A stretch of 28,000 bases of DNA from a virus, in the IMG/VR virus record IMGVR_UViG_3300045988_175865, positions 90,001 to 118,000 of that record; one strand, given 5' to 3'. Positions 1 to 28,000 of the stretch are shown one piece after another; position 1 is the stretch's first letter; the number at the start of each line of letters is the position of its first letter. A program made the position numbers and the translations under genes. Under the pieces are notes generated by a model that was not told the DNA's origin, did not search any database, and saw nothing but the letters and a program-made list of their open reading frames with translations.

Positions 1-14
1 TATGTATCGTGTCA

Positions 15-53
15 ATGTATCAATCTGACATCGGTATGTATCAATCTGACATC
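15..53. repeat. Two perfect 18-bp direct repeats ATGTATCAATCTGACATC (15-32 and 36-53, 21-bp period), with an extra ATGTATC heptamer at 2-8; candidate iterons or operator sites
   Basis: Read directly from the sequence. The array may continue upstream of the window. It lies about 120 bp upstream of a winged-helix DNA-binding gene. Confidence 0.6.
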
Positions 54-62
54 ACATGCTGT

Positions 63-130
63 ATTACAATATTAATAATTATTTATACAAATTATATAAA
101 ATAATATACAAATATTTTGTATATTGTAAT
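63..130. promoter_or_regulatory. AT-rich nested inverted repeats: ATTACAATAT 63-72 pairs with ATATTGTAAT 121-130, and ATATACAAA 104-112 pairs with TTTGTATAT 116-124
   Basis: Reverse complements checked by eye. The region is non-coding and sits immediately upstream of the first gene. Confidence 0.45.
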
Positions 131-169
131 ATTATTCATATTTTTGTACTATAATTAAAATAACTAATT

Positions 170-952
170 ATGGAAGAGAAAAAAATATCAAAACAACATA
201 TTCAAGTTCCACATAATCTAGGAGAAAGAAATGAGGAAATAAAAATAAAAATGAATCCAACAGATTATCTTGTATATGGTTATTTACGTAAATTTATGAA
301 TAAAGATACTTATCAAACGCTTGTGTCTTTAAGAAAGTTAGCCAATTTAGTAGATGTATCTATTAACACTGTACAAGCTAGTATTAAAAAGTTAAAAGAA
401 GCAGGAGAGATTAAGGTTTTGGAAGAAAAAAATGGTAGAAGTAATATATATGAAATACAGAAAGGCAGTAAATATTTTGAACGATTTACTTTTGAATTTT
501 TAGATTTAGATGATAATATTCTTAAACCTGAAGATAAGGGAGTTCTGTTAGCGATGCAACAATATAGTGATACTTCTAGCGGAACATTTGCCATTAATAC
601 TAGTTCTAATAGAGAGTTATCTAAAAAGTTACATATTGGGACTAGAGCCTTATCAAGTGTATTTCAGAGACTTGAAGATAGAGGCATTTTAACTACAAAA
701 CCTCTTACTACCAGAGATTCTATCACAGGATTAAATAAAACTGCTAAATATATAGATTTATCTATTATTTGCCAAGCTATATTATTTATCAATAAAAAAG
801 TAGATGAACAAGGTGAACAGATTAATGAGCATGATAAGAGGCTACATACTGTAGATAAAAATATTCTTAAAATGCAAGAAGAGATAAACAGACTAAAAGA
901 AATTATTGAAAAGAGTAATTTAAAAGAGTCATCAGGCTTTAAATTTGAATAA
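170..952 (+). CDS. DNA-binding protein with two winged-helix-like segments and a C-terminal coiled coil; candidate regulator or replication initiator
   Basis: Uninterrupted 260-aa ORF with ATG start and TAA stop. Segments LVSLRKLANLVDVSINTVQASIKKLKEAGEIKV and SNRELSKKLHIGTRALSSVFQRLEDRGIL look like HTH plus wing. It contains no Trp codon of either kind. Confidence 0.6.
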   Translation: MEEKKISKQHIQVPHNLGERNEEIKIKMNPTDYLVYGYLRKFMNKDTYQTLVSLRKLANLVDVSINTVQASIKKLKEAGEIKVLEEKNGRSNIYEIQKGSKYFERFTFEFLDLDDNILKPEDKGVLLAMQQYSDTSSGTFAINTSSNRELSKKLHIGTRALSSVFQRLEDRGILTTKPLTTRDSITGLNKTAKYIDLSIICQAILFINKKVDEQGEQINEHDKRLHTVDKNILKMQEEINRLKEIIEKSNLKESSGFKFE

Positions 953-956
953 AAAT

Positions 957-1166
957 ATGGATCAACAGAAAAACTTACCATTTAGTTTTAATCCTATTAG
1001 TTTAGAAGGTATAGGAGACGATTACAGTATTATCATAGATACAGGTAGAGATCATTTAGATAGATTTAAAACAAGGGAAGAGGAGAGATTAGATGAGCTC
1101 TACGATAGAGTAGAGAAGTTAGAATATAGGATTGTAGAACTAGAAAACAGGTTAAGGAATAGATAA
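957..1166 (+). CDS. Small hypothetical coiled-coil protein (69 aa)
   Basis: The track ORF 945..1166 begins at TTG; the first ATG is at 957. The C-terminus ELYDRVEKLEYRIVELENRLRNR is heptad-like. TAA stop. Confidence 0.45.
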   Translation: MDQQKNLPFSFNPISLEGIGDDYSIIIDTGRDHLDRFKTREEERLDELYDRVEKLEYRIVELENRLRNR

Positions 1167-1218
1167 GTTATTATTACTGAATAGTAGAATATTATTTGTT
1201 TTTGTTAAAAAAAAATGT

Positions 1219-1226
1219 TATATTTG
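1219..1226 (+). promoter_or_regulatory. TATATTTG, a match to the Bacteroidota -7 promoter consensus TAnnTTTG
   Basis: Lies 26 nt upstream of ATG 1252 in an intergenic A/T tract, with TTTG motifs further upstream at 1194-1204. The same octamer recurs at 7119-7126. Confidence 0.4.
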
Positions 1227-1251
1227 CGAAATAAAAAGTAAATATACTAAT

Positions 1252-3504
1252 ATGGATATAACCTACAAACCGTATATTAGAGATTCTTCATTTAAAGAAT
1301 TATCTATTAAAAGTCCTACTATTAATATTAAAGGATACAAACCTAAATATACTATTAAACAAGATAAAGAGGAGACAATTACTCCAGTAGAGTCTCCAAT
1401 AGAAGAGATACAAATGCATAAGAAACCTAAGATTAAAGAGGCAACTGCAAAAGCCATAAGATTTGAATCTAAAGAGGAGTTTAAGGATACTATGATTCCA
1501 ATATATGAGTCTCTCTTAGTTAAGAGGGGTTTAAATCCAGTATTTGCCAAAGCTTTAGTAGCTCAGGATGGATTAGAGTCTGCTTGAGGGTCTAAACCAT
1601 CTGGAAATTTTAATTTTGGGGGGATTAAAGGTAAAGGGGCTATTAAAAGAACTAGAGAGGTTATTAATGGTAAAGATGTCTATATAAATGATAGTTTTAG
1701 AGATTTTAATTCTCTAGAAGACTATGCTAATTTTAAGATTGACCTACTTAATAGTAATCGTTATAATGCTTTCTCAGGGAATATTTCAGAGTTTGCAGAT
1801 AGGGTTCAAAAAGGAGGATATGCCACAGATCCAAACTATTCTAGGACTTTAAACAAGGTAATTGCTACTGCTAAGTATGGTGGTACTCTTAAACTTCAAC
1901 TAGGAGGTGTTGTTCAAGGCAAACAATGAGTTAAAAATTGATATAAAAATCGTACATTTCAGATAAAAAGAAATATACAACAACATCAATTAATACCTAT
2001 ACCAGTTACAGGTGCCTTAGGGTATAATATTCTTGCGCATAATATAGATCTTACTACTGCCTCCATAGATCCTTCTAGAGTTCCTACGGATTCTAAAGGT
2101 GTATATTCCTATGGAGGTCGTAAAATATATCTAAGAGATGACTCTCCTTCTACTGCTGTTCATGAATGAGTGCATAGTAGCAGGCCTGATCCTCAAGTTA
2201 AAGAGATAGCTAGAATTAAGAATTTACTAGGGGATGCTTTTTATGACCAAAACTCAGTTATACCTGATGATTATCTAGATGATCCACAAGAGATATATGC
2301 AAGATTAATGCAGTTTAGGTATGCCTTAGGAGTAGATCCGAATCATAAGTTCACTAATGAAGAAATTGAAGACCTTAAAAAGAAGCATGTAAAACAAATA
2401 ACTCTAACAAATAGACTTAAAGGGAAAGATCATAATAGTTTTTCTACTACGGTGTTTGATAATGAAGGTAATGTTATCAGTACAGAGCCTTATCAACCTG
2501 AGTATAAGTATATTCCAGAAGAATCTACTGTTCATAGAGAATATGATACAAATAATACTTTTCAGTTCTTAGATAGATATAGTACTGATAGTATTCGTAG
2601 GATGTTAAATGATGTTGCACAAGTTCCTAATAAAAAGAAAAATTCTACTTTATATATAAAATTAGGATTAAAGATACCTAAATATCAACATTCTGGAGTT
2701 TTAAGAAATGCTTATAATGACCCAGAACATTATTATGATTATTCTAAAGGATCATATGATCCTGATACAGAACATTGATCAGGTAGAGATCCTGTAACTG
2801 GAATGGAATTAAAAAATCCAAACCATCCTACTGCATTTATGCACCATGAAGTAGAACAACAATTAGGGAATAAAAGATATCAAGATAGTAATGGTAGATA
2901 CTATACATTTCCAAATGGTGAAGCTCCGATCTGAAGAAACGTATATGGCCCACTTTCTGAGACTCCAGGACTCAAAGAGGTAAAATATCCGAGTTATGGA
3001 AAAGGAAAAGCCAGTGTGGAAGAAGCTATAAAAGACAATCTCCCAAGAGTACAATGAATTTGAGATCAATTAATTAGTGCAGGAGCATCTAAAGAGCAAG
3101 CAGCTGCTATATTGGGAAATTTCTGAAAAGAAAATCAAATTCAACCTTACGGTAAACCTTCAAGTAAAGGTGCTATGGGGCTTGCGCAACTTAAAGAAGG
3201 CAGATACGATAGATATATAGAATTTTTAAATAAAAATAAATTAATAGATAGTACTGAGTCTCAAATAAAATATTTGTTACCTATTATTTTTACAGATGAA
3301 GTAAATCCTCATAATTTAGATAATTATAACTCTTTTTGAAATGATTGAACAAAATCACAAAGAGAGGCTTTTAGAACTGCGAAAGGTCTAGATGATCTTA
3401 CAGTATCGTTTGCAGATAACTTTGAAAGAATGGGTAAAAAGGAAGCAGATTATGAGACTCGTATAAATGCCGCGAGATATATTTACAACTTAATGGTAAA
3501 ATAA
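1252..3504 (+). CDS. Multi-domain muralytic protein (750 aa in table 4): N-terminal glucosaminidase-like domain, central HExxH segment, C-terminal phage-tail-lysozyme-like domain
   Basis: Track ORFs 1252..1587 and 2170..2778 are in one frame and join across 11 in-frame TGAs with no TAA or TAG. Motifs: AQDGLES-A-W(TGA)-GSK...NFGGIKG...GGYATDPNYS (glucosaminidase-like); STAVHEWVHSS (HExxH); AAAILGNFWKENQ...GAMGLAQL (tail-lysozyme-like). Confidence 0.85.
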
Positions 3505-3531
3505 TTATAAATAAATTTAATAAATACATAT

Positions 3532-3780
3532 ATGTTTGCATTAAGAAAAATTACAAATGACGGTTTAGAAATGAATTTTAGTTTAGGAGACTCTTATACT
3601 TTAGTTATAAAAGAACGTTCTCCGAAAGAATTTGAAGATAAGATGAAAGATCATCCTTTTTATGATAAAACTTATGCTTTTATTTATTGAAAAGATGAGA
3701 TATTACCGTTATATAAAAATCAAAAAAACTATATTGTTTCTGAAAATGGGACAACTTATAGTAACTTAACATATAAATAA
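3532..3780 (+). CDS. Hypothetical protein (82 aa)
   Basis: ATG 3532 to TAA 3778-3780, with one in-frame TGA (FIY-W-KDE). Tightly packed with its neighbours. Confidence 0.5.
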
Positions 3781-3781
3781 T

Positions 3782-3973
3782 ATGACAACAATGACTTGGA
3801 AAACAAAATTAATTATTGCCACAATCGTAATTGCTTTAGTATTAGCAGGTTGTGGCATTGTGTCAGCTATGAGCTTTGGAAGTTTGTTGCTTGCATTAGT
3901 AAGTTTAGCAGTAGGAGCGGGTTGTGGTTGGTATGCTAAGCATATCTATGATAAATATTTTAAAGGTAAGTAA
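3782..3973 (+). CDS. Small two-TM membrane protein (63 aa); holin-like by size and topology only
   Basis: Hydrophobic stretches LIIATIVIALVLAGCGIVSA and LLLALVSLAVGAGCGW followed by a charged C-terminal tail. Both Trp are TGG and there is no TGA. A LAGC lipobox-like string is also present. Confidence 0.5.
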   Translation: MTTMTWKTKLIIATIVIALVLAGCGIVSAMSFGSLLLALVSLAVGAGCGWYAKHIYDKYFKGK

Positions 3974-3976
3974 TAA

Positions 3977-5026
3977 ATGAATACAATATTTTTTGGGCAG
4001 AATGTTCCTATACAATCAGCAACAAAGGTTAAAATAGATTATATCAATAAAACTAAACTTCCTATTAAAGTCAGTATTCGTTGAAGAGATAGAGATGTTC
4101 TAAATTATACTACTGAAACTTTAAATCTACTAGCTACGGGAATAGCTGAACAAACAGTAGCATTAAAAGAATTTGAATCAACCTCTGGAAAGGGTCTAGT
4201 AGTTGAGCCAATAACGAATGCAATTATCCAGTCTAGTACAACCTATCCTAATTTATTTATTAAAGCTACAGTAAAAGAGGTAGCAACAGGAGATACTATA
4301 GGGACATTTAACAAGGGAGGAACTATTAGTCCTATAATGGCTACAAAAGAGTATAAAGCAACTGTTACTTTTGAATATAATTCTGGAATTTATATCAATA
4401 GTACTGCTGCTAGTTATGTTCCTTCTGTTACCAGCAATCGCCCTACAATAACTGTATTTAGTGATGCTGATTCATATGGTATTACTGGAATATTTACACA
4501 AGACACAGCAGTAACTTATACTGATATAGAAGGAGATGGTTATACTCATTATATTAAAGTAAATAACTGTAAGAATATTGCATTAGATAGATATATTAGT
4601 GGAACTAATTCTGGATCTAACTCTAGTATTAGTTATTCAGATTTATATCCAACGGATATAGGAACAATAGATATCGGCAAAACTTTATTTTTATGAGTAA
4701 AATCATTTACATATGAAAAAGAATCTACTCCTACTCCTGATCCTTCAATTAGTTGTGATGTTTATGTATGTAGTCGCAATAATTTAAATAACACAGAATG
4801 TAGTATAGATATATATGAGGGGTATGGAACAACAGGAGTTCGTTTAGCCAATCGATCACTGGCCCCTGGGGAAGGAAATTGAGTTTCATATCAAGGTGGA
4901 TATAGAACATTCAGTTCCATACGTTTAAATTCGATTTTAAAGGGAACCCAGATAACTATCGCATTAAATGGGTCTCAAGTAAGTGATTGAGTAAATGAAA
5001 CAACTAAATATGTTTGAATTAATTAA
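3977..5026 (+). CDS. Hypothetical protein (349 aa), Ser/Thr/Asn-rich, possibly structural
   Basis: ATG 3977 is in frame with track ORF 4337..4696. The frame continues across several in-frame TGAs to TAA 5024-5026 and is followed by a strong terminator. Confidence 0.6.
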
Positions 5027-5030
5027 AAAT

Positions 5031-5060
5031 AAAAAGGGAGCTACTTAGCTCCCTTTTTAT
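5031..5060. terminator. Bidirectional rho-independent terminator: stem GGGAGCT 5036-5042 / AGCTCCC 5047-5053, loop ACTT, A-run on the 5' side and T-run on the 3' side
   Basis: Perfect 7-bp GC-rich stem flanked by AAAAATAAAAA and TTTTTATTTT, placed between convergent gene blocks. Confidence 0.8.
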
Positions 5061-5210
5061 TTTCATATTGTTTTGCGCTTATAATAAAGCATACTAGACT
5101 TAGTAATATATATATAGGTTGCAGTACTTTAGTACTTGTTATAAAAAATATTCCCATAAATATCAATCCTATAACATATCAAAATTTATACATTTCCAAA
5201 TTTTTTTAAA

Positions 5211-5231
5211 AAATCTCATAATGTGAGATTT
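5211..5231 (-). terminator. Hairpin AAATCTCA / TGAGATTT with a 5-nt loop, followed on the minus strand by a T-rich run
   Basis: Located 37 nt downstream (minus sense) of the TAG stop of CDS 5268..5654. Flanked by T/A runs on both sides. Confidence 0.6.
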
Positions 5232-5267
5232 GAATTTTTTATTGCATTTTGTTTTAAAGCATCCATA

Positions 5268-5654
5268 CTATCTTTTAGGTACACCTCCAAGTTTATCAGC
5301 TCATCTCTCTGAGAAAAACGAGTAATAAGATCTTTTAGACTTTGGGGTATGGACAGCTGCTCAAATAATACTAGGCAGTCCTATAATTAGTAAATAGAGG
5401 GGGCCTAAATATAAAGATTGTCGAGTATGTCCTCATTCATGTTCTTTTGTGTAATTTCTGTTATATTTCCAACTTGATTCTCCCATTAAGATATATAATC
5501 CTAATGAAATACCTCCAGGAAAGTCTCCCGCATAAATTGGAATTTCCCTAAAAGTTTCTTTGTACTCTACATTATAGCACCAAGTTAAAATAAGACCGAG
5601 AAGACACTGTGGAAATTCCCATATCCATCTCAGTATTTTAATATACCATTTCAT
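5268..5654 (-). CDS. Membrane protein with an HExxH motif (KEHEWGHTRQS), 128 aa
   Basis: Track ORF 5433..5654 continues through 4 in-frame TGAs to TAG 5268-5270. Hydrophobic segments CLLGLILTW, GGISLGLYILM and LYLLIIGLPSIIWAAV. The N-terminal Trp residues are TGG and the C-terminal ones are TGA. Confidence 0.6.
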
Positions 5655-5669
5655 ATAATATTTAATTTA

Positions 5670-6149
5670 TTATTTATAGTAAATTTGTTTAAATTGTTTT
5701 CAAAGTGAGTATTGAGCATCTATTGCTTCTTGTTCTCAAGGTCTTAACATATAATCCAATGAAGAATCAAACTGCTGTCCCTTTCATAAGAATACTAGTT
5801 TAGAGTCTTTTTTCACAAGTTCAAGATCTCTCCTTTCGTATTGATCAAAATGTTGCATTTCATGACATATAATAGTACTAAGACTATCAGATAACTTAGT
5901 TTTTAATAATAGATTATATGTATGAGGCACTGGTGTTTTATCTAATAGAGCTTGTAGTTCACATTCCTCAGTTGAAAATTTATTTAAGATTTTATCATTA
6001 TATTGTACTAAGATATTTGCATTAGTATAGTCAAATATTTTAGTTCCTATGACTTTAATTAATTCCTCCACATCATATTGTTTTGGAGATTCAATTAATG
6101 AGGTTACTTTAAATGTCTCAGGGAACTCTAATTTAGATCTTTCCTTCAT
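5670..6149 (-). CDS. Soluble HExxH metallopeptidase-like protein (159 aa)
   Basis: Track ORF 5784..6149 extends through 3 in-frame TGAs to TAA 5670-5672. It carries the motif TIICHEMQHFDQY and a downstream PWEQEAIDAQ. Family not assignable by eye. Confidence 0.55.
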
Positions 6150-6180
6150 ATTATTTAAAAACTAGTTATTATAACCTCTA

Positions 6181-6618
6181 TTAAACTCGTAGTTCTCCAT
6201 ATTGGTTTCTCATTCTTGGAGATATTCCTAAATGTACCCATGTAGTAGACCCACTTTTTTCAATAAAGCATTGATCTATAATGACTTTATTTCTAGTAAA
6301 ATAATCTTTAATAAAGTTAAAGAAGTTTTCTACTCCTTTAACAGAAGTATCTTCAGGTTGTAAATCTACTGCTTCATAGTATTGATGAGAGCTATTACTT
6401 ACGCCCCCCACAGCTTTATTAAGGCTTGGCGATCTATATCCAGAAGTAATAGTAATAGCAGAGCCTCATGCTTCTCTTAATGGATCTAAATATTCTATAG
6501 CTAGTTTACTTAGTTTTTCTATTCCCTCTCATGTAGGTAGATTTTCTATTTTTTTACTAATAGCTGTATCACTTCTTAAAAGTTCACTTAATTCAAAATA
6601 TTTAGGGGTATTTATCAT
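6181..6618 (-). CDS. Peptidase M15-type cell-wall hydrolase (VanY / L-Ala-D-Glu peptidase-like), candidate endolysin, 145 aa
   Basis: ATG at 6618. Reads FELSELLRSDTA...NLPTW(TGA)EGIEKLSKLA...LDPLREAW(TGA)GSAITITSGYRSPSLNKAVGGVSNSSHQYYEAVD...TTW(TGG)VHLG. This fits the SGYR...LN...GG..S.H...A.D...H zinc-peptidase pattern. Confidence 0.85.
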
Positions 6619-6621
6619 AAT

Positions 6622-6705
6622 TTAATCTATAATATATAATTTACCAAATTTCTCTAAAATCATATAAATATTTATTTGCGCTTTGATTTTCTTCCATGTC
6701 GTCAT
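6622..6705 (-). CDS. Possible 27-aa mini-ORF (MTTWKKIKAQINIYMILEKFGKLYIID) preceded by GGAGGTG
   Basis: ATG 6705 lies 9 nt after GGAGG (plus-strand CACCTCC at 6713-6719). The TAA stop at 6622-6624 is 3 nt before the endolysin ATG. Very short, with no homology evidence. Confidence 0.25.
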   Translation of the reverse strand: MTTWKKIKAQINIYMILEKFGKLYIID

Positions 6706-6719
6706 TTTTATACACCTCC

Positions 6720-6998
6720 TTACTTCTTATTTCATTTACGGCTATTGGCAGCAAATGTTGCTCGTTTTCTAATTGCTGGATCGGGGGATCTTTTGCCTTT
6801 AGCTATACACTCACTAGTTACTTTCCCACCACAATATTCTGTAAACTTACCTCTATTTTTCTTTTTAATATGAATCTTAGAACCTTTTTTCATCATTTCT
6901 ATGTACCCACTTGTAATATTATCTAGTCCGAGATTGTTATGATACTCTGTACTATATACCTCTACAATTTTGTTTAAAATGTCATTGTTATATTTCAT
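6720..6998 (-). CDS. Small basic hypothetical protein (92 aa)
   Basis: Track ORF 6732..6998 continues past one TGA (NSRK-W-NKK) to TAA 6720-6722. The C-terminus is Lys/Arg-rich (RGKFTEYCGGKVTSECIAKGKRSPDPAIRKRATFAANSRKW). Confidence 0.6.
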
Positions 6999-7039
6999 AC
7001 TTTATAAAATAATTAATAGGATTATTATCTAGTAATATA

Positions 7040-7126
7040 TGTTTTTGCAAAAATAATTATTTATTTAGATATTTGCAAGTATTTGGATAAATTATTTGGA
7101 TATCAGAAAGATTTATTATATATTTG
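7040..7126. promoter_or_regulatory. Divergent promoter region: palindrome TTTTTGCAAAAA (7042-7053), direct repeats TATTTGGATA (7080-7089 and 7093-7102), and TATATTTG (7119-7126, matching TAnnTTTG)
   Basis: 168-bp non-coding gap between the minus-strand gene ending at 6998 and the plus-strand gene starting at 7167. Motifs read directly from the sequence. Confidence 0.45.
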
Positions 7127-7166
7127 CATCATTCAAGTAAAATTATAAAGAGTTATATATATAAAT

Positions 7167-7859
7167 ATGGCAAAAACAAAACCTGATATAGATTCTGGAC
7201 TTTCATGACTAGAAAGAATCCTACAATTATGTAAAGAGTATGGAGTATTTAATATTTTGAAGGGGTTATTTATTCTAATTATGTTAAGTTTAACACTTAG
7301 GATTTGTTACAATCCTAGTTTTTTATTTGACAAATATACTGACTACATGATTCAAAGACATGCGAAAGAGTTACATAAAAGGACAGAATATGATCAACAA
7401 ATAAAAAGTCTCCTGCCTGTATATTTATATAAATATCATGCAGATAGGATATGAATTATTCAGTACCATAATGGTATTATGGACTGACAACATGGAACTA
7501 TGAGATTTGAATTATGTAATGATGAAGTTGAATCAATTAAAAATCAATATGATGATTTTAATCTAACCTGGATTAATCTTCCTTATTATTTAAAGACGAA
7601 CGAAGTATTTATAGGGGATATGGTTAAATTAGATAGTATTGATTCAACTCTTTATACACAACTCAAAAAAAATAATGTACAATATTTAGCCTGTACAATT
7701 ATAAAAGATAATAGTGGTTATCCAATTGGTATTTTAGGAGTGACTTGGAAAAATATTCCACCAAATATTGATAGATTACAAAATAAAATACATAACTATC
7801 TTATAGATGATAGAGCAGATATTAAAACTCTTATCCAATCTAATTATAATAAAGAATAA
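7167..7859 (+). CDS. Hypothetical membrane-anchored protein (230 aa)
   Basis: ATG 7167 is in frame with track ORFs 7257..7454 and 7500..7859, joined across 3 in-frame TGAs; two TGG codons are also present. TM-like segment GLFILIMLSLTLRI. Confidence 0.6.
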
Positions 7860-7868
7860 AAGTATAAT

Positions 7869-8807
7869 ATGCCTAAACTTAGAGGGAGTAAATTAAAATA
7901 TGTTAATGGGTATGCAGTAGATAAAGAAAATGATAATATTATATACTCTGATGAAAAGCATATTTATATGGATAAGACCGATAATTCGAAATATGAATCT
8001 GTAACGACAATAATAGGACAGTACTGTCAAAAATTTGATTCAGACTTTTGGTCATCATATAAAGCTTGTGAGGCGTTATTAGACCCCACAGTGTTTTACC
8101 CATTAAAATCAAAACTTCTTTCTTCTAAAAAATGAAAGGAGTCTTATATTGAAGAATATGGATTAGATCCTGTTGAATTTCTAAATAAGAAATCTGAAAT
8201 CCTACAAAGTTATGAAGATAAGAGGAATGCTAGTACGGAACGTGGTACTAAAATTCATGCTATGATGGAAGATCTATTTTATCAAGGGGATAAAAAGGCA
8301 ATAAGCAAATATGCAGGAGGAGGAACTTTTGAGGTAAAGAAGGGATATTATAAACTAGATATTGACAGGGCAATTTATCCTGAGTTTCTTATAAGTTATG
8401 AATTTGACGAATACTTAAAGATTGCTGGTCAAATAGATTATTTACAGATAAGTGATAATGAGATAGTTTTGTTAGATTGAAAGACTAACGGTAAGATTGA
8501 TAAAGAGTCTTATTTTGATAGAACTACTAAGAAAAGACAGATGATGCTCTCACCATTAGAAAATATTATGGATTGTAATCTATGTCACTATCAGTTACAA
8601 CTTAGTATGTACGCATATCTTCTTCAGAAGATTAATCCTAAATTCAAAATAAAAAAGCTAGCAATTGTTCATTTTGATCACGACGGTAATGAAACTGAAT
8701 ATGAAGTAAAATATTTAAAAGATGATATTGCCAGACTTCTTTTATATCATAGGAAGAAGAATAAAATAAAAGCAGAACTTGATAGAGACAAACCAATAGT
8801 ATTTTAA
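7869..8807 (+). CDS. PD-(D/E)xK nuclease of the RecB/Cas4/lambda-Exo-like type (312 aa)
   Basis: Track ORFs 7869..8135, 8262..8480 and 8541..8807 share one frame and join across two TGAs. Motifs: ERGTKIHAMME, IAGQIDYL, LLD-W(TGA)-KTNGK (D/ExK) and HYQLQLSMYAYLL (QxxxY). Confidence 0.75.
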
Positions 8808-8813
8808 AATATA

Positions 8814-9050
8814 ATGATTATGGAAAATGTAGATGATTTATATGAAAATAGAATGAAGATTTGCAAAGAATGTCCTCTATATCTAGATAGTCCTATGGGA
8901 GCTAGATGTAATTCTAGGCTATATTTATCCGAAGCTGATAAAAAGACAGTAAGTGATAGACCCAAATTAGGATATAAAAGAGGTTGTAACTGCATGTTAC
9001 AGAGAAAATTACGTATGCCCGCTGCAAAATGTGTTGTAGGGAAATGATAA
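8814..9050 (+). CDS. Small Cys-rich, probably Zn-binding protein (78 aa), paralog of the next gene
   Basis: Contains CKECP...C...GCNC...AAKCVVGK-W(TGA)-TAA. The only TGA is the penultimate codon, immediately followed by TAA. Confidence 0.6.
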
Positions 9051-9055
9051 GATTT

Positions 9056-9274
9056 ATGAGAAAAATATTACATACAATTAAAAATATTATAATAGGGTGA
9101 TATCGTAGATTCTTTAAACCTATCCCTGATTGAGCTGAAAGAAGATATAAGGTATGTTTAAACTGTCCTCATAAAGAAAAATTATTTGGAGAATACTGAT
9201 GTACTTTATGTGGATGTAATTGCTATAGTAAATCATTAGTAGAAGATGAACAATGTTATGATAATAGATGATAA
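9056..9274 (+). CDS. Small Cys-rich, probably Zn-binding protein (72 aa), paralog of the previous gene
   Basis: ATG 9056. Reads MRKILHTIKNIIIGW..PDW..VCLNCPHKEKLFGEYWCTLCGCNCYSK...CYDNR-W(TGA)-TAA. Three internal TGAs plus a terminal TGA-TAA. Absent from the track because of the TGAs. Confidence 0.55.
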
Positions 9275-9301
9275 TGTATAATTTTAAAATAATAATGAAT
9301 T

Positions 9302-9826
9302 ATGAGTAAAGAAAAGTATCTAGGAACTGATTACTATCAGTTAACAGGAAAACATTTAATGGGCAATAATATTAAACGTGAAATTGATCCTGAAGCACTT
9401 AAAAGGGCACAAGAAAAATCAGAAAGAGATCAAATGGAGTATGTAGCTAATTTAATGGCAAAAGATAAAGATTGCAAACCATATGAGAATAAGAAAATTG
9501 TTCCTACGGCAGGTAGAGTAGTTGTATTACCTTACGAAAAGAATCCTTATCGTTTACCATTACATGAAACCACCTCTGGACTTATCTTAGGTGATTTTGA
9601 AACATCTGCAACATATAAATCACAGGAAACTGGAGAACAAGAAGCCTCACAGCGTGGTATTTGGTGTTGTAAAGTTATTGCTGTTGGTAATGAATGTAAA
9701 AGTGTATTAGAAGGGGAAGATGTATATATTAATTTTACATTAGCTGCGCCACTCCCCTTTGGTGGAAAAGGATACTATACAATCAGTGAAAATAATATTA
9801 TTTGTAGTATAAGAGATAATGAATAA
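9302..9826 (+). CDS. GroES/Cpn10-like co-chaperonin domain protein with an N-terminal extension of about 65 aa
   Basis: The C-terminal region IVPTAGRVVVLPYEK...TSGLILGD...CKVIAVGNECKSVLEGEDVYINF...YYTISENNIICSIRD follows the GroES pattern (R-V-hydrophobic strand, mobile loop, G-x-V-x-A-V-G, GD-x-V, final D/E-I-hydrophobic). No TGA. Confidence 0.5.
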   Translation: MSKEKYLGTDYYQLTGKHLMGNNIKREIDPEALKRAQEKSERDQMEYVANLMAKDKDCKPYENKKIVPTAGRVVVLPYEKNPYRLPLHETTSGLILGDFETSATYKSQETGEQEASQRGIWCCKVIAVGNECKSVLEGEDVYINFTLAAPLPFGGKGYYTISENNIICSIRDNE

Positions 9827-9854
9827 GATGCACTAAAGGTGAATATAAAAAGTT

Positions 9855-10106
9855 ATGGATATGAATGAAAATTTGAATAAAGAAGGTAACTCATACCTAT
9901 TTTACACCCCTGGTCAGCTTGTAACCTTAAAACATAAGGAGCTAAATTCTCCAATAATGCTTATTCAAGAGAAAGTTACAAGGCAGTTTAAACAGGGAGA
10001 TCAGATGTATAATATCTTCAAGGGTATGAAATGTATTTGATTTGATAAAAATAATGTGCTGCAAGAAGCAGTATTTTCAACAAAAGATTTGGAATTATAT
10101 AAATAA
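9855..10106 (+). CDS. Small hypothetical protein (83 aa), resembling the YodC/DUF2158 style of small beta proteins
   Basis: Track ORF 9855..10040 continues across one TGA (KCI-W-FDKNN) to TAA 10104-10106. Pattern PGQLVTLKH...SPIMLI...C.WFD. Confidence 0.45.
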
Positions 10107-10114
10107 ACAATCAT

Positions 10115-10339: not shown

Positions 10340-10341
10340 GT

Positions 10342-11786: not shown

Positions 11787-11792
11787 TGAACT

Positions 11793-14111
11793 ATGGCGAA
11801 AAAACTAAGTATTGAAGCTGAAATGAGAGCTGCTCAGAGAGATATGAAGAAGAAGTTGAGTGGTGAAGATAAGGAAGAGGTAAAGAAGGTTAAAAAGAAA
11901 GCTAAACCAGTAAAAGAACAATATAAGGAAATAAAAGAATCTCTTAAAGAAAAAGAGGCTCCTAAGGAAATTGCTTTTAAAGATAATTATGAAGAGGAAT
12001 TAATTAGGGAATTATTTAAAGGTGATATTACTGTTTCCCAAGCTCTGGGTAAAGAAGATGAGCCTGAACAACCTAAAAGAGAGAAAAGTGGATTGTGGGA
12101 TTATGTTCTCGAAGATGAAATAGAATTCTTTGACCCTGAATGTAGTTATGAATTGACTGGTTATAGACCTATAGATGAAACTCATGGATTAGATTTTGAT
12201 CCAGCACCTTTTTGTGAAGCGGGAAGAGTCTATACTGAAACTGGTCACTATACTGAATATCCGTCTGGATCTAAACCATATGCTGATTTCTGACAAGAAC
12301 AATTAGATAGATGCATTAATGGTTATACGATTGGTAAGTATAGAATTACTGGAGATAATTATTTCTTCCTTAATTTTTATAGGATGCCTGTTGTAGACGA
12401 TTCTAAAAAACTGGCGGAAGCTTCTGGAGAAGGATTTCCAAAATTTGTAGCAGAGCAATATAAATTCTTTCATTATTTTGAAATGTGCGAACTACTTAAA
12501 AAAGACTGCGTTGCACTAAAAAGCCGAGGCATAGGCTGAAGTGAGATAGGAGCTTGTTTAGGAGTTCGTCCATTTATAACAGGAAGAAATTTTAATTCAA
12601 CATATATTACTTCTTCACTAAACTATCTGGAGCCGACATTAAATAAATGTTGAGCCCAGCTTCATTTTTTAAATGGAAACACCAACGGTGGATTTAGAAG
12701 ACCTATGATGAAGATTAACAATGCTCTTCATAAAAGAACTTCTCTTACTAATAATGAAAATCGCGAATGAGGCAGATTAAATAATATAGAAGGAATTGTA
12801 GCAGATAATATTAACAAAGTCCGTGGTATTCGTTCTAATAGACTTTTCTGAGAGGAGGGAGGGTCCTTCAAAAATCTAGAGACTGCTTGAATTAAAGGAG
12901 AGGCATTAGTAACAGTTGCGGGTGCTAGAAAAGGCATTATGAGTGTCTGAGGTACAGGAGGTGATTCAGATGCTTCTGCACTAGAGGGTCTATCTAAAAT
13001 GTTTAATAATCCAAAAGAATACAATGTACTTCCATATAAAAATAATTACTCTGAGGATGGTGAAGTTCAATATACTGGTTATTTTATACCCGCTTTTAAT
13101 ATTATGCTTAAAAAAGGTTTCTATGATAATAGAGGAGTTACAGATAGGAAAAAAGCAAGAGAACATTATGAAACTGAAAGAAAAAAGAAGTCTGGGCAAA
13201 ATTTATTAGATTATTGTGCAGAATTTTGTTTCACCCCTAGTGAGGCATTATTAAAACAAGGTGATGGTATTTTTGATCCAGTACTTATAGCAGATCGTTT
13301 AACTCAACTTCGTATACAAAAAGTAGGGGTAAAACCACAACAAGTTGATTTGTTATGAGATGTTCCAAAAGGGTTAGAAAATAATCCAAGAAATAAAGTT
13401 AAACTTATTCCTAATGCACAAGGAAAAGTATTTATATATGAACCTCCTCTTAGAGATGGGGAAGGGAATCTTTATAAAAATCTCTATATTGCAGGAATTG
13501 ACTCTATTGATCAAGGTACTGCAGATTCCTCAACAAACAATGATGTATCTGATTTTTGTATAGTAATTAAGAAAAGAATCTTAGGTTCCAATTCTTCAAA
13601 TTATGTTGCAATTTATAAAGATAGACCTAGGGACATTGCTACGGCTTATGAAAATGCTATGAAATTATGTGTATATTATAATTGTAAGGCGATGCTAGAG
13701 CATACAAAAATTAGTATTATTATGTATTTTCGTTCTAAAAAGAAAGATAATCTTTTTATGAAGAGACCAAAATCAACGATGCCTGATATTCGAAAAGGTA
13801 ATTCTGGAATGATTGGATATCCTGCAACTGAAACGTATCTACGTCATGGACTTGAATTAATTAGTAGATTTGTAGATGAATCTTGTTATTCTATACAGAT
13901 TGATGAAATGCTAGAACAATTACTTAAATATTCCTGGGAAAATAAACGTAAATTTGATATTGTTGCAGCTATGATAGCTGCTGAATTAGGGGATGAAGAC
14001 CTTTTAGGATTTACTCCAAGGGCTCAAGATGAAGTAAGAAATTCATGAAAGGATTTTGGATGATATTATGATTCAAATGGACAAAAACGATATGGCATTA
14101 TACCTTCGTAA
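11793..14111 (+). CDS. terL: Terminase large subunit (772 aa in table 4)
   Basis: Track ORFs 11793..12293, 12999..13358 and 13659..14048 share one frame and join over 10 in-frame TGAs. Motifs: ITGDNYFFLNFYRM, KSRGIGW(TGA)SEIG (Walker A-like), RLFW(TGA)EEGGSF (Walker B-like), W(TGA)GTGGD, YIAGIDSIDQG (nuclease Asp). Lys/Glu-rich N-terminal extension. Confidence 0.9.
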
Positions 14112-14400: not shown

Positions 14401-14402
14401 AA

Positions 14403-15578
14403 ATGAATGTTGATAGAGAAATAAAACAAATTGACAAAGCTATAAGTGAGTTAATATACCCTAAGATAGCACTTCAAAAAGCTTATAATTACTATCACAG
14501 TAGACGAGATGCAGATCAGTTTAGGCATATTGAAGAAAATTATGGTATTGGTGTACCCACTGGAATTACATTTAATCCTCTTGTTCGCCCTCATATAGAT
14601 AGGTTAATTGGAGAATATTTAGGATTAAATCAAGATTTAAAAATAACATGTAAAGATGAGGAAACAGTTTCTAATATTATGAGAGAAAAACAATTATTAA
14701 TTAGTAAAGAACTGTTTAATTATCTAAAAAAATATTTAGAAAATAATATAATATCTTCTATTATTAACAATGAAGAAGTTTCAACGGATCCATTTATTGA
14801 GAAACAATTAAATAAAATTAGTAATAGCATTAATGATTCTTTTGTATCTCAATATGAAATTGCAGCTCAGAATATTCTTGACTATTTAAAGCAGTCAAAA
14901 AATATAGATTTAACAAATAAAATGCATAGTCTGCTTACAGATTTATGTATTACTGGTACATGTTATTATAGAGTAAGACCTTCTAACAGTGGAGATAATA
15001 TACAATTTGAGGTATTGAACCCTATTAATACATTTGTAGAAAAAAATCCAAATTCAGACTATTTAGCAGATTCATACCGTGTAGTGGTTAGAAGGTATAT
15101 GTCTGTAGAAGATGTTTTACTAGAATATCGTAAAGATCTAAAGGAGGAACACATAAAACTTCTAAAGGAAGAGAATAACAGCACAATTGAGTCAGACGGT
15201 CCTTCTTATTATATTAGAGCCACATCTCCTGAAATAGCTGGAGTTTGAAACAGTACTCATACTGGAATTTTAGGGGGACTAGAAACACATCCTATATGAC
15301 CAGGTGAAACTAGCAGAACTAATAGGTACACTTACCCAAAAATGTGAACTGTTTATGATGTAGAATGAATTGAAGTTGATTATAAAACAGGAAAACAGAC
15401 TAGACATGAAGGTACACGTATTGGAGAAGAAATTTATATAACTAGGGGGGAATCTGAAAATATTATTAGAACAAAAGATAATCCGAATAAATGTAGATTA
15501 AGTGTTAATGGTTTATTTTTCCTAGATAAGAATGGAGATCCAAACTCCTTGATTATCAAGACAATGGATCAACAGGAT
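14403..15578 (+). CDS. Portal protein, exon 1 (392 codons)
   Basis: ATG 14403. N-terminal KAYNYYHSRRDADQF is portal-like. The frame continues past 4 in-frame TGAs to ...IIKTMDQQD, then hits TAA at 15579, which is the first codon of the intron. Confidence 0.8.
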
Positions 15579-15934
15579 TAAGATTATATGAGTCCTGTCT
15601 AAACCTCGTGAATTGCTGGAAACTCTTAAATTGAATGAAAGTAAATCTAAGACAATCAGCAGCCAAGCTCGTAAGAGAAGGTTCAACGACTATCCTGAAA
15701 GGGAGTACACTCAAGTGAGTGGAAGTGCGGGGGCAAATTTGATTTAAACTAATTATAAGTAGTTATGAAATATAACGAAATAGAATTTAAAAATCTAGTA
15801 GCTACAGAATGTTTTTCAACAGATTTATTTGAATTAGTTTTAGAACAAATTTGTATGATATAGTCTAATCTATATGGTGACATATAGCAGTCGCAAGACG
15901 GGTGTAAATTAACGACTTACACTGAATAAAAATG
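15579..15934 (+). ncRNA. Group I-like self-splicing intron (356 nt) with no homing-endonuclease ORF
   Basis: P1: exon CAGGAU (15573-15578) pairs with intron GUCCUG (15592-15597), placing U15578 opposite G15592. The last intron nucleotide is G15934. GNRA hairpins: CTATATG-GTGA-CATATAG (15870-15887) and GTC-GCAA-GAC. Hairpin CACTC-AAGT-GAGTG (15708-15721). Long-range complement CGACT (15687-15691) / AGTCG (15889-15893). Removal restores the portal frame. Confidence 0.75.
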
Positions 15935-16969
15935 AAATATGACTTATTAGTATTTTATCGAGATAACTTAATTTCTAGTTCAGGTACTGTTGGAGATTGA
16001 GTTGACTTAGCTTATGTACCACAGGTTTTAGGAGTAGATTTACCAGAACGATTACAAAAATGATTAGCTTATAAAAAGCAAGGTATGGGCTTAATTGATA
16101 GTAGTCAAGAAGGAGCTCAAACAATGAATACGATATTTAATGGTTATGATGATACTATTAAAGCACAAAGTATCCAGGCAATTAATTTAGCTATACAATC
16201 AATTCAACAACAGGTTTCTATGGTCACTGGTGTTTTACCTGAGGCTCTAGCTCAGTATGAACAACGTGATGCTGTTTCAAATGTTAAGTTGGGAGTACAA
16301 ACTACAATGCTTTTAACTAAGCAAATTTTCAATGCTATGGATACTGTATATCAAGAAGCAAATTATGATATGCTTAACCTTGCGAAACTAGTTTGACCAA
16401 AAGGAATAACAGGCACAATTGTTTTAGGTAATTATTCCAAAATATTTACAGCCCTTCCCCAATATTATACCTTAACTGATTTTGATATTCATATTGAAGA
16501 TAGTACTAAATCTTATCAGAACGTACAATCATTAATTGCAATCAGTGGAGAGCTTGTTAAGAGCGGAGTAGCAGATTTAGGAGATATTACAAATATTATA
16601 ACTGCATCTTCTATTACTGAATTAAAGCGATATATTGATCGCTCTATAGCTCGTAAAAAAGAGGAAAATGATACTATTGAACAGTTACAACAACAAATTC
16701 AACAGTATGAACAAAATTCTAAAGAACTTCAAAAAGTTAATCAACAATTACAAGAACAAATTCAACAGCTACAGAATCAATTACAAGCTAATAATCAAAC
16801 TAAACTTGAAATTGAAGCAGAAAAGGTTGCAATTGAGAAAGAAAGGATGAGGAATGATAAGGAATATAATGATAAGAGTCTAGAAGTTAAAAATAAACAA
16901 ATTGATGCACAGGTTGCTGAGATATATGATGATAATCCGTATAATAATAAAATAAAAAGTGTAATATAA
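15935..16969 (+). CDS. Portal protein, exon 2 (344 aa plus stop), with a Gln-rich coiled-coil C-terminus
   Basis: Starts KYDLLVFYRDNLISSSGTVGD-W-VDLAYVPQ and includes track ORF 16085..16396 in the same frame. Three in-frame TGAs. TAA at 16967-16969 overlaps the next ATG. Confidence 0.8.
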
Positions 16970-17959: not shown

Positions 17960-17966
17960 ATTAATA

Positions 17967-21203: not shown

Positions 21204-21216
21204 TATATTTTAAGGA

Positions 21217-22842: not shown

Positions 22843-22846
22843 TTAT

Positions 22847-26035: not shown

Positions 26036-28000
26036 ATGGCAAATAAAAATAAGTTTATTTATTGTAAAACTAAAGCGAACTTTAATTCTTATTTACAGGA
26101 ACATGAAGAGGAGCTTTATAATTGTACCACATTTATACAAGATTCAAAAGAAATTTATACTCATGGAAATTTTTATAAGGCTAGTAATAGATGGGCTATT
26201 TCAAGTCTAACAGGCAGCTCTGATTATGCAACATTAGCTTATAATAATGGTAAGGTCGGGGATATATTTGACATGTCTTCTGGGACTACTGTTCATGGTA
26301 TATTAGGTACAATTAATGATAAGAAATGATATATATTCTATAAAGATTCTATTAGAGAATATATATATAATACAGATACAAAAAAATTTACAGCAGGAGC
26401 TACAATTAATCTTGCTAATGACTCTGAAATTCCAGATCCTGCTACTGTGGCTCCTAAAATGGATGGTACAGCTGCTGTAGGATCATCTAATAAATATGCA
26501 CGTGAAGACCATGTGCATCCTTCAGATAATACCAAACAGGATACTCTTGTTAGTGGAGAATCAATTAGAACAATTAACAATCTTTCTTTATTAGGGGAAG
26601 GTAATATTAATGTAGGCGATGTTCCTTCTATTACAGTAGAAAATGAACAAATACCAAATGAGACAGATTTTAATAGAGTTGCAGAAGCTGCGGCAAATAA
26701 TAGAGCTGTTTTAATTAGAATTAAAACTACTGAAATGACGTTAACCTCTAATTATTGACAGTATACCTCTTCAGAATCTCAGAGAGGCTTTGTTGCTTAT
26801 GCAACATATTTATCAGAAACTAATAACATAACTCTGACGGCACATATTATAGAAAATCAACCAGTTATGGTAGAAACTTATGATAAAGAATTACAAGAAG
26901 AGTTAGTTTCTGGGACTAATATTAAAACTATTAATGGTACTGCTATACTAGGATCAGGTAATATAGACACTCCAGATAGTAAGGTTACTAGTGCTGCTAA
27001 TCACTATACTCCTGTTGGAGGAAGTGCTACATCTGGAACTATTATAAATTCTATTACTAAGGATGAGAAAGGACATATTATAGATATAGGGGTTGCTAAT
27101 GGTATAGATGCTGGTAAAATTACCTCGGGAGTTATTGATATTGAGAGATTGCCTAAGGGAGCACTGGAGCGTTTAGTAATAGTTGCAAATAAAGCAGCAA
27201 GACTAGCTTTAACCACTGAACAAGTACAAGAAGGCGATACTGTTAAAGAGAAAGATACAGGTGTAATGTATTTTGTTATTGATTCTTCTAAATTAAATAG
27301 TGAAGATGGCTACTCTATTTATACAGCAGGAGCAGCATCTAGTGTGCCTTGGTCAGGAGTGACAGGTAAACCTGATTTAGTTAACTCGGTTAAGTTAGTA
27401 CTGCCAAGTTCCATATTCATTAATTCTGAAAGTACACTTACAGGAAATGCAGAATTAGGATCATCTTTAAGTACACAAAACGCTAATACAGTATGAGCAG
27501 CTCCAAGTGGCACATCTGGGGTACCAACATTTAGGAAATTAACTTTCCTAGATATGAATACAGTAACGTCAGATAAATTTAACTATATACCCCAGACATT
27601 TAAAGGAGGAAGGCTAGTAATTAATTATAAAAACTCTGCTGGGGGTCAAAATACTGACAACACTATAACAGAATACCAATTTGGAGATGGGGCCAGTAAT
27701 CTTACATACATAACAGCAAAAGGTTTTAAAACTTCGGAAAATAATGGACACAGGGTACTATGTTCAAATGGATCTTCCAAATTATTGTATGGACCATCAA
27801 CTCCTGGAACAGCAGGACAAGTATTAATTTCAAATGGGTCATCAACTCCTGAATGGGGAAAAGTACCTATAACTAGTATAGGAGGACCTACTGTTGATAC
27901 TGCGACTTCTAATACTGTACCATATGGAATTACTTCATATATTGGGGAGTACCGTTCTGATAAATTAGCGTTTATAAAGAGCACTGATTTATATGGAGAA
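26036..28000 (+). CDS. Tail-fibre protein, 3'-truncated by the window end (more than 654 aa)
   Basis: Track ORFs 26036.., 26447.. and 26867.. share one frame, joined by TGAs, and the frame stays open to 28000. Common fibre motifs: PKMDGTAAVGSSNKYAREDHVHPSD, VPWSGVTGKPD, APSGTSGVPTFRKLT, GTAGQVLISNGSSTPEWG. Confidence 0.8.

Follow-up and report, generated by a model that had tools for sequence, protein, structure and literature searches.

Mollicutes, to which translation table 4 is native, lack peptidoglycan. The window analysed here is a 28,000-nt stretch of the viral record IMGVR_UViG_3300045988_175865 (positions 90,001 to 118,000). Coding density rises from 0.68 to 0.85 once TGA is read as sense, yet the window encodes enzymes directed against peptidoglycan. 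This raises the question of what kind of host such a recoded phage infects, and whether the recoding belongs to the phage or to its host. The first-pass annotation had proposed a phage-specific code on a walled, Bacteroidota-like, standard-code host. The features on which our answer draws are listed in Table 1.

Table 1. Features of the window, in window coordinates, with the evidence for each.
Position	Strand	Feature	Evidence and remarks
116..146	+	Bacteroidota-type promoter, TTTG-N19-TATTTTTG	Pattern search; 24 nt upstream of the HTH gene
170..952	+	HTH_36 DNA-binding protein, 260 aa	Pfam PF13730, E 3e-17; zero in-frame TGA
1195..1226	+	Bacteroidota-type promoter, TTTG-N20-TATATTTG	26 nt upstream of the hydrolase gene; both boxes invariant in 4 relatives
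1252..3504	+	Muralytic multi-module protein, 750 aa	Single ORF under table 4
3782..3973	+	63-aa protein, two hydrophobic segments and a basic C-terminus	Hydropathy scan
3977..5026	+	349-aa protein	Missing from more distant relatives (no match in L020 or L021)
5026..5063	+	Terminator-like hairpin, strong, 17 pairs	Closes the plus-strand unit
5268..5654	-	128-aa membrane protein with HEWGH motif	TM-like segment; dN/dS 0.05-0.08
5670..6149	-	159-aa protein with HEMQH motif	PHROG families of unknown function; dN/dS 0.20
6181..6618	-	M15 zinc peptidase, single domain, 145 aa	Pfam Peptidase_M15_3 PF08291, E 1e-16; phrog_894 endolysin, E 2.5e-28
6720..6998	-	Basic 92-aa protein, first gene of the minus-strand unit	ORF; kept in relatives, dN/dS 0.12-0.34
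7048..7079	-	Near-consensus Bacteroidota-type promoter, CTTG-N20-TATTTTTG	Faces the M15 unit; block kept in relatives, one of which (L012) has a perfect TTTG
7095..7126	+	Bacteroidota-type promoter, TTTG-N20-TATATTTG	41 nt upstream of gene 7167; invariant in relatives
7167..7859	+	230-aa protein, membrane-anchored (N-terminal)	ORF, hydropathy scan
11793..14111	+	TerL, large terminase of crAss-like type	phrog_6681, E 3e-61; 10 in-frame TGA
14403..16969	+	Portal gene, two exons	phrog_6547 matched by both halves
26530..28000	+	Tail-fibre segment (start), 2,256 bp, common to the crAss-like phage and a 29.8-kb phage	Sequence comparison

Where the relatives carried a different codon at a TGA position of the window, this was TGG in 84 of 129 cases, followed by Tyr and Phe codons, and a Gly codon in 5 only. 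Judged by these alignments, TGA codes for Trp and not for Gly, and table 25, the CPR code in which TGA is Gly, was therefore excluded. The recoding is partial and block-wise. TGA makes up 0.77 of the Trp codons in the window and 0.42 in the replication genes, while its share falls to 0.17 in the 55-90-kb block, which includes tRNA genes and is readable with the standard code. In-frame TGA was found in 54% of genes; for comparison, 26-71% of genes are affected in recoded phages on standard-code hosts, against ~90% on code-matched hosts (Borges et al., 10.1101/2021.08.26.457843). Ordinary tRNA scans did not find a suppressor tRNA. A split tRNA gene of 439 nt is nevertheless present at contig c[53663-54101], with a host-type promoter (see below) 24 nt upstream, and its predicted splicing by the group I rule would give a canonical 5-bp anticodon stem, a CU-UCA-AA loop and a G73 discriminator. 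Because an Rfam search did not recognise the intron as group I, it is this structural argument that supports splicing and a UCA anticodon, and by it the phage carries its own intron-split suppressor tRNA(UCA).

A tblastn search with TerL matched crAss-like phages only: all 130 phage records belonged to this group (28-44% identity), and every named host of the matched phages was a member of the Bacteroidota (Bacteroides, Flavobacterium, Cellulophaga, Azobacteroides). The closest TerL in the annotated phage collection was only 44% identical. The lysis region is 93-96% identical to, and collinear with, that of complete relatives of 164-171 kb, a genome size inside the Zeta range of 145-192 kb. 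The window probably covers the lysis and structural genes of a crAss-like gut phage of the Zeta group, with an estimated genome of ~167 kb, of which ~49 kb are missing from the contig. Its portal gene is split by a 350-nt insert (15585-15934) that the relatives lack, their alignment skipping it. Giant ORFs occupy contig positions 3-15037, one of them with a PD-(D/E)XK domain, and no MCP was recognised within the window.

At least three peptidoglycan-directed modules had been claimed for the window, and the glucosaminidase and tail-lysozyme-like modules of the 750-aa protein, as well as the M15 peptidase, were all matched by Pfam. Residues 97-207 of the 750-aa protein correspond to Glucosaminidase (PF01832, GH73; E 4e-16) and residues 602-748 to Phage_lysozyme2 (PF18013; E 8e-20). 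Between them lies a conserved HExxH region with a near-invariant HEWxH motif (aa 304-308), possibly a further module, for which profile and structure searches gave neither a family nor a fold match. The GH73 domain has the catalytic Glu of the LE(S/T)xWG motif and the YATDPxY motif, both kept in an alignment to FlgJ structures, the latter as YATDPNY; E109 and Y190-Y196 are invariant in 32 homologues. Fold matches included FlgJ structures (TM 0.55-0.74) and phi29 gp13 (3csr; TM 0.63). TGA encodes all 11 Trp residues of the protein, among them W112, which in the alignment is the counterpart of the catalytic-motif Trp of FlgJ, and a dN/dS of 0.19-0.27 shows purifying selection. Most probably, it belongs to the virion or tail and breaks down the cell wall during entry.

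The M15 peptidase is probably the endolysin, as its family matches suggest. Residues H77, D84, D114, E119 and H128 show no variation among 28 homologues, the His-Asp-His zinc ligands (H77, D84, H128) are present, and the SxHx6D motif aligns to 1LBU. The gene carries two TGA codons, has a dN/dS of 0.14 and encodes no wall-binding domain. Its best phage matches were Bacteroides fragilis phages (41-43% identity), and the remaining named hosts among the matches listed were all Gram-negative. Inactive relics, which would have spoken against a walled host, are not what these hydrolases appear to be, with their catalytic residues intact and dN/dS values of 0.14-0.27. The 63-aa protein is a holin-like candidate, a label that we infer from its hydrophobic segments because it had no family match; Pfam and PHROG searches with the 349-aa protein gave no match either.

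The 8-mer TATATTTG, which the first-pass annotation had read as a Bacteroidota -7 element, is located exactly at 1219-1226 and 7119-7126. Its general form carries no weight alone: TAnnTTTG occurred at chance level in the window (39 against 38.6 expected) and in all non-coding DNA of the contig (37 against 32.5 expected). The Bacteroidota primary-sigma promoter consensus pairs TAnnTTTG at -7 with TTTG at -33 (PMC7366714), and TTTG sits exactly 20 nt upstream of both TATATTTG sites. The window contains 4 copies of this bipartite form, TTTG-N19-21-TAnnTTTG, where 0.66 would be expected, and the non-coding 15% of the contig contains 12, where 0.50 would be expected, a ~24-fold enrichment (maximum of 3 in 300 shuffles). 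Most of the matches are correctly oriented and precede a start codon or a tRNA by 11-41 nt. At the two TATATTTG sites, neither the boxes nor the distance between them varies among relatives, in which the flanking DNA is only 57-70% identical. The sigma-70 pattern, by comparison, was at chance (80 against 73 +/- 9).

The initiation regions were examined in the same way. The claim that starts generally lack Shine-Dalgarno (SD) sequences held throughout the window, where none of 22 genes had an SD core (AGGA, GGAG or GAGG) at -18 to -3; in the crAss-like part of the contig, 4 of 100 genes had one, compared with 10-11 of 100 in control windows. Adenine was present at -12/-13 in 63% of genes against a background of 40% (p ~1e-9), and the three most A-rich leader positions were -13, -12 and -3. 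The published Bacteroidetes signature is the lack of SD with A enriched at -12/-13 and -3 (PMC6847099). The phage also encodes an IF-3, whose best 80 bacterial matches all came from Bacteroidales, Prevotellaceae among them (53-57% identity); when the search was unbiased, the cellular matches began with Alistipes and Tidjanibacter (56-57%).

TerL, the promoters, the A-rich leaders without SD, the M15 type, IF-3, the intact hydrolases, the partial recoding and the tRNA(UCA) support the proposal of a phage-specific code on a walled host. With a probability of roughly 85%, we conclude that the host is a standard-code bacterium with a wall, belonging to the Bacteroidota and most likely to the Bacteroidales, in which the phage reads TGA as Trp by means of its own machinery. 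Bacteroidota use TGA as a stop codon, and in the examined Bacteroidales loci (those of the IF-3 matches) genes do end with TGA, which bears on a question that the first-pass annotation had posed about candidate hosts. The check for CRISPR and prophage links that it had also called for was less informative: two low-power scans, in each of which 20 kb of the window was compared with a sample of 401 Bacteroidales genomes, yielded no match of the CRISPR type, and a low-power search found no prophage relatives in bacterial genomes. Because no link of either kind was found, the host is one that we infer from the features above.

A walled, standard-code Bacillota host, for example of the Erysipelotrichales (Holdemanella, Faecalibacillus), would leave the recoding phage-specific and change the host phylum, and peptidoglycan hydrolases suit any walled host. 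Bacillota and their phages have strong SD sequences in most genes, however, and here SD cores are absent or depleted (0/22 and 4/100 genes), the A signature at -12/-13 is present, and the sigma-70 consensus is at chance where the Bacteroidota-specific bipartite promoter is enriched and conserved. IF-3 is closest to that of Bacteroidales, and the single-domain M15 peptidase, with no wall-binding domain, is nearest to endolysins of phages with Gram-negative hosts. In favour of Bacillota, iPHoP calls Holdemanella and/or Faecalibacillus for three opal-recoded Zeta phages of 176 kb and 30-33% GC, not necessarily close relatives of the present one (Babkin et al. 2025, PMC12386605), and a few crAss-like spacer matches fall outside Bacteroidetes (Yutin et al., PMC7886860). 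We consider a Bacillota host unlikely.

That the phage took over the code of a host natively reading TGA, be it a Mollicute (table 4), a member of the CPR (table 25) or an unrecognised walled table-4 lineage, would agree with TGA being sense over much of the genome and with the tRNA scans that missed the suppressor, but is highly improbable given the partial, block-wise recoding (54% of genes, with a TGA share of 0.17 in the block with the tRNA genes), the phage's own tRNA(UCA), and promoters, initiation regions, IF-3 and TerL that all point to Bacteroidota. For a Mollicute in particular, all three domains directed against peptidoglycan have stayed intact under purifying selection, and no Mollicute-phage protein was matched, the TerL and M15 searches included. 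The profile of a Mollicute phage, with no need of hydrolases and near-complete use of TGA for Trp, was likewise rejected, as the hydrolases are intact and the recoding is partial.

With a Bacteroidota host, infection would probably proceed as follows. The host's primary-sigma RNA polymerase would recognise the TTTG / TAnnTTTG promoters ahead of the HTH gene, the hydrolase, the M15 unit, gene 7167 and the suppressor tRNA, and ribosomes would start without SD pairing on the A-rich, Bacteroidota-like leaders. The low-TGA block with its tRNA genes could be translated in the host's standard code, and the intron-split tRNA(UCA) would be made, spliced and charged. The TGA-rich late genes would then become translatable, among them the 750-aa hydrolase, including the Trp of its GH73 catalytic motif, and the M15 endolysin. 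Since both enzymes need TGA read as Trp, wall degradation would be withheld until the code switch, as in the published gating hypothesis. Host-type promoters were also found ahead of TGA-rich genes, which counts against this explanation.

The contig itself was observed to be a fusion of the crAss-like phage with a separate 29.8-kb phage, joined via the common tail-fibre segment. The smaller phage is TGA-recoded as well, and it might need co-infection with the crAss-like phage, the carrier of a suppressor tRNA, for its TGA codons to be read, as a 'genetic-code hitchhiker' comparable to a satellite. In this doubtful scenario, the tail-fibre cassette of 2.26 kb common to both phages would mean that a single Bacteroidales cell is the target of both.

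A phage-specific TGA-to-Trp code on standard-code Bacteroidota, with wall-degrading enzymes among the most recoded genes, is already published (Yutin 2021, Borges 2021), so the value of the present case is confirmatory and it adds no new concept. It does indicate that the host phylum of a recoded, uncultivated phage can be assigned from raw-sequence cues without CRISPR data, the useful ones being the bipartite promoter, A-rich leaders without SD, the endolysin type and a host-derived IF-3 gene. These cues conflict with the Bacillota calls made by a machine-learning tool for some opal-recoded Zeta phages.

Among known systems, the 750-aa protein shares a multi-domain muralytic architecture with phi29 gp13 and tail-associated hydrolases, its C-terminal domain belonging to the 'phage tail lysozyme' family, and the retained catalytic Glu and YATDPxY with FlgJ-type GH73 glucosaminidases. 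In gp13 a lysozyme-like domain is followed by M23, whereas here GH73 is followed by an uncharacterised HExxH region and a lysozyme-like domain, and the virion location is putative. The M15 peptidase resembles the endolysins of the B. fragilis siphophages B124-14, Barc2635 and vB_BfrS_23 (41-43% identity over the full 145 aa), which are likewise single-domain zinc peptidases with H-D-H ligands; these phages are small, unrelated and of standard code, in contrast to the TGA-containing M15 gene here.

At the level of the whole phage, alternatively coded gut phages on standard-code hosts (Borges et al. 2021/2022, 10.1101/2021.08.26.457843; Ivanova et al. 2014) have in common with it a low GC content, recoding concentrated in structural and lysis genes, an encoded suppressor tRNA, a low-TGA block readable in the standard code, and lysis enzymes that need read-through; as a difference, the replication genes here are also moderately recoded (TGA share 0.42). 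The opal Zeta crAss-like phages (Yutin et al. 2021, PMC7886860; Babkin et al. 2025, PMC12386605) are similar in their crAss-type TerL, the genome size of the relatives, multiple tRNAs, TGA read as Trp most strongly in late genes, introns in conserved genes (here the portal), a giant protein with a PD-(D/E)XK domain, human-gut relatives and a presumed Bacteroidales host. They differ in that the listing of several published genomes gives no suppressor tRNA, and that of some a Bacillota host call, while the present phage, a putative Zeta member, has a suppressor tRNA that is intron-split and missed by standard tRNA scans.

The contig (a single sequence of 148,631 bp and 30% GC, of which the window represents bases 90001–118000) carries two large terminase genes and two portal genes, which rules out that it is one phage genome. 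In the window, the large terminase matches phrog_6681 and the portal, present in two pieces, matches phrog_6547; tail-fibre-like proteins are also encoded. Contig 118786–146375 encodes another terminase (phrog_2) and another portal (phrog_11226), together with a protease, and the last 2,256 contig bases (146376–148631) are an exact repeat of 116530–118785. Collinearity with complete relatives, namely related phage contigs in IMG/VR, passes through window position 26530 and ends exactly at contig base 118785. A random chimera at 26530 was ruled out, given that the complete relatives are continuous across this junction. The contig is an assembly fusion of an incomplete crAss-like phage (contig 1–118785) and a circular phage of 29,846 bp (the small phage). 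The repeat and the end of collinearity imply that the assembler passed from the crAss-like phage into a shared tail-fibre segment, once round the small phage, and into the shared segment again. The wall-hydrolase and promoter findings lie entirely within the crAss-like part.

When the terminase was searched against an annotated phage collection, all 130 of the 130 records matched were crAss-like, with Bacteroides, Flavobacterium, Cellulophaga, and Azobacteroides as hosts. The best match was 44% identical, and classical crAss-like phages ~ 30%. Close relatives with 97% terminase identity are IMG/VR contigs of 164–171 kb, some rated complete, with terminal repeats. One relative with a complete genome is the 167.6-kb IMG/VR contig IMGVR_UViG_3300045988_159576. 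The region of wall-hydrolase genes is collinear with them at 93–96% identity and is therefore integral to this lineage. In genome size, presence of introns, and opal recoding, the phage is consistent with the crAss-like Zeta group (PMC7886860). A 350-nt insert divides the portal gene into two ORFs; its precise absence from relatives at 93–96% identity is as expected of a mobile intron, and no Rfam group I intron model matched it.

The shared tail-fibre segment (2,256 bp) is entered in frame by fibre ORFs of both phages. It is 90–92% identical in a complete crAss-like relative, and so native to that lineage. An independent relative of the small phage, 30.8 kb long, carries it at 95% identity; ~ 20 other relatives of the small phage have a different cassette at the same place. 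Given its occurrence in relatives of both, two TGA-recoded phages have really exchanged this module, which implies a common host.

Window genes are fragmented under table 11, and reading TGA as sense yields long fused ORFs. Coding density over the whole contig rises from 0.68 to 0.85 with this change, a far larger gain than with TAG or TAA reassignment. Where diverged relatives differ at TGA positions of the window, TGG was observed in 84 of 129, followed by Tyr and Phe, and Gly in only 5, which excludes table 25. All 11 Trp residues of the 750-aa wall-hydrolase protein are TGA-encoded, including W112 in its GH73 catalytic motif, which aligns with a FlgJ Trp. The recoding is partial: of the genes encoding 100 aa or more, 54% have in-frame TGA. 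TGA makes up 0.77 of the window's Trp codons and 0.70 of those in the initial 15 kb; its share is 0.42 in the replication block and, in the 55–90-kb block where the tRNA genes lie, 0.17. For recoded phages of standard-code hosts, 26–71% of genes are reported to be recoded, compared to about 90% in phages matching a recoded host (Borges et al., 10.1101/2021.08.26.457843).

Ordinary scans of the contig found 11–13 tRNAs, none of them UGA-reading. The intron mode of ARAGORN identified a 439-nt split tRNA, placing the splice site such that the anticodon arm is defective. Under the group I rule (splicing after U, intron ending in G), the same gene would have a 5-bp anticodon stem, the loop CU-UCA-AA with anticodon UCA, and a G73 discriminator. 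Its long extra arm has the loop CU-CCA-AA, a copy of the tRNA-Trp anticodon loop, and the gene follows a Bacteroidota-type promoter at a distance of 24 nt. Splicing to a phage tRNA(UCA) is inferred, since no group I intron model of Rfam matched around the gene. Elsewhere on the contig is a tmRNA-like phage gene (Rfam RF00023, scoring 50 bits where the threshold is 47), with the tag peptide AKNTVRKMANKVMPLATPMRAQVAFAA according to ARAGORN. Two over-long weak tRNA matches (105–129 nt, 33–35 bits) adjoin the tRNA cluster, one with a Bacteroidota-type promoter 12 nt upstream, and may be further tRNAs with inserts.

The peptidoglycan-directed modules proposed in the first-pass annotation were recovered as Glucosaminidase (E 4e-16) and Phage_lysozyme2 (E 8e-20) in the 750-aa protein and Peptidase_M15_3 (E 1e-16) in the 145-aa M15 product. 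Aligned with FlgJ structures, the GH73 domain keeps its catalytic Glu (E109, LESAWG) and YATDPNY motif, both invariant across 32 homologues; the central H304-E305-W-x-H308 and the C-terminal-domain residue E627 are nearly invariant. In the M15 peptidase, the zinc ligands H77, D84, and H128, as well as D114 and E119, are invariant in 28 homologues, and its SxHx6D motif aligns with 1LBU. Judging from these retained motifs and from dN/dS against relatives (0.19–0.27 for the 750-aa gene, 0.14 for M15), neither hydrolase is a relic.

In the AlphaFold model of the 750-aa protein, confidence is moderate overall (mean pLDDT 60) and good in the domain cores; the model's fold matches are FlgJ-type enzymes and phi29 gp13, the cell-wall-degrading enzyme of the phi29 tail. 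The family of the 750-aa protein is common on 144–175-kb contigs, with the C-terminal muramidase module swapped between PF18013 and SLT; sequence search found no solved homologue of this domain. Even at E <= 1, Pfam gave nothing for the middle HExxH region, and the AlphaFold model showed no significant fold match there. Since the small single-domain M15 peptidase is the better endolysin candidate, we lean slightly towards a virion-associated entry enzyme for the 750-aa protein. Two hydrophobic segments make a 63-aa protein a holin candidate; it was rejected as a unimolecular spanin, as it has a lipobox-like motif (LAGC) but too short a mature part. Three HExxH motifs surround the endolysin, in proteins all under purifying selection, with no recognizable family or fold. 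An ORF of 349 aa, without homologues, occurs in close relatives and is missing from those at ~ 65% identity, and the strongest terminator hairpin of the region follows it.

Coordinates of features in the window and, where marked, in the whole contig
Feature	Position	Strand	Remark
750-aa wall-hydrolase gene	1252–3504	+
HEWVH motif	aa 304–308 of gene 1252–3504
63-aa protein	3782–3973
349-aa ORF	3977–5026
HEWGH motif protein	5268–5654	-	membrane protein
HEMQH motif protein	5670–6149	-
M15 peptidase	6181–6618	-
Portal insert	15585–15934
Tail-fibre segment	from 26530
IF-3 gene	contig 15105–15611
Split tRNA	contig c[53663–54101]	-
tmRNA-like gene	contig 70715–71138	-
Over-long tRNA matches	contig 83536–83665 and 83801–83905	-

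A Bacteroidota -7 element had been reported from two intergenic sites. The sequence TATATTTG is present at both (1219–1226 and 7119–7126), but the 8-mer class alone occurs at chance frequency, with 39 TAnnTTTG in the window against 38.6 expected and 37 in non-coding DNA of the contig against 32.5. At each site a TTTG lies exactly 20 nt upstream (1195–1226, 7095–7126), and the two boxes together make up the complete consensus for the primary sigma factor of Bacteroides (PMC7366714). This bipartite promoter, TTTG-N19-21-TAnnTTTG, has 4 occurrences in the window (0.66 expected) and 12 in the non-coding 15% of the contig (0.50 expected; at most 3 in 300 shuffles). Eight matches, correctly oriented, precede a start codon by 11–41 nt, and 2 more lie immediately upstream of tRNA genes. 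At the sites 1195–1226 and 7095–7126, both boxes and the spacing are invariant in relatives whose flanks are only 57–70% identical. Intergenic region 7030–7166 holds a second, near-consensus promoter on the opposite strand, conserved and facing the M15 unit. When the initial 20 kb of the window were compared with four Prevotellaceae/Bacteroidales genomes, the best short DNA matches (36–47 nt, 81–89% identity) fell in this divergent region (7037–7084) for three of the four, which suggests a resemblance to host promoter sequences. As a control, sigma-70-type matches were at chance (80 against 73 ± 9). The described absence of Shine-Dalgarno sequences held for the window, with cores upstream of 0 of 22 genes, and they are depleted across the crAss-like part (4 of 100 genes against 10–11 of 100 in control windows).

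The three most A-rich leader positions are -13, -12, and -3, and A occupies -12/-13 in 63% of genes against a background of 40% (p about 1e-9); this pattern is described as characteristic of Bacteroidetes (Baez et al., PMC6847099). The best phage relatives of M15 are Bacteroides fragilis phage endolysins, and the other named hosts among the matches listed are Gram-negative. The best 80 bacterial matches of the phage IF-3 gene are all Prevotellaceae or other Bacteroidales (53–57% identity), and an unbiased search gave Alistipes and Tidjanibacter (56–57%) as the first cellular matches after the phage's own lineage. TGA is a stop at the IF-3-matching Bacteroidales loci. The promoters, missing Shine-Dalgarno cores, initiation regions, endolysin, and IF-3 point to a Bacteroidales host.

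No CRISPR spacer match was found for window 1–20000 in 401 genomes from the family of a Xylanibacter genome, or for 8001–28000 among 401 genomes of the same order, with two candidates scored per genome. A 36-nt match of 92% lies inside a bacterial coding region with no flanking repeats, and other short matches were rejected as a terminator-like hairpin, an intron-core match, and a collagen-like repeat. A pattern scan with M15 and the small phage's terminase as queries found no prophage relatives in bacterial genomes.

A Bacillota host, as iPHoP calls for some opal-recoded Zeta phages (Holdemanella, Faecalibacillus; PMC12386605), is improbable here, given that Shine-Dalgarno sequences and sigma-70-type promoters would be expected and neither was seen. 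Still less credible is a host with a native TGA sense code, which conflicts with the presence of wall hydrolases, with the recoding being partial, with the phage having its own tRNA, and with every Bacteroidota signal. The promoters, leaders, IF-3, endolysin, partial recoding, and tRNA support phage-specific recoding on a standard-code host, probably a member of the Bacteroidota. The first-pass interpretation is correct, and its concept is already known: TGA-to-Trp recoding of crAss-like phages with Bacteroidetes hosts has been published, as has the finding that recoding is concentrated in late and lysis genes (PMC7886860; 10.1101/2021.08.26.457843).
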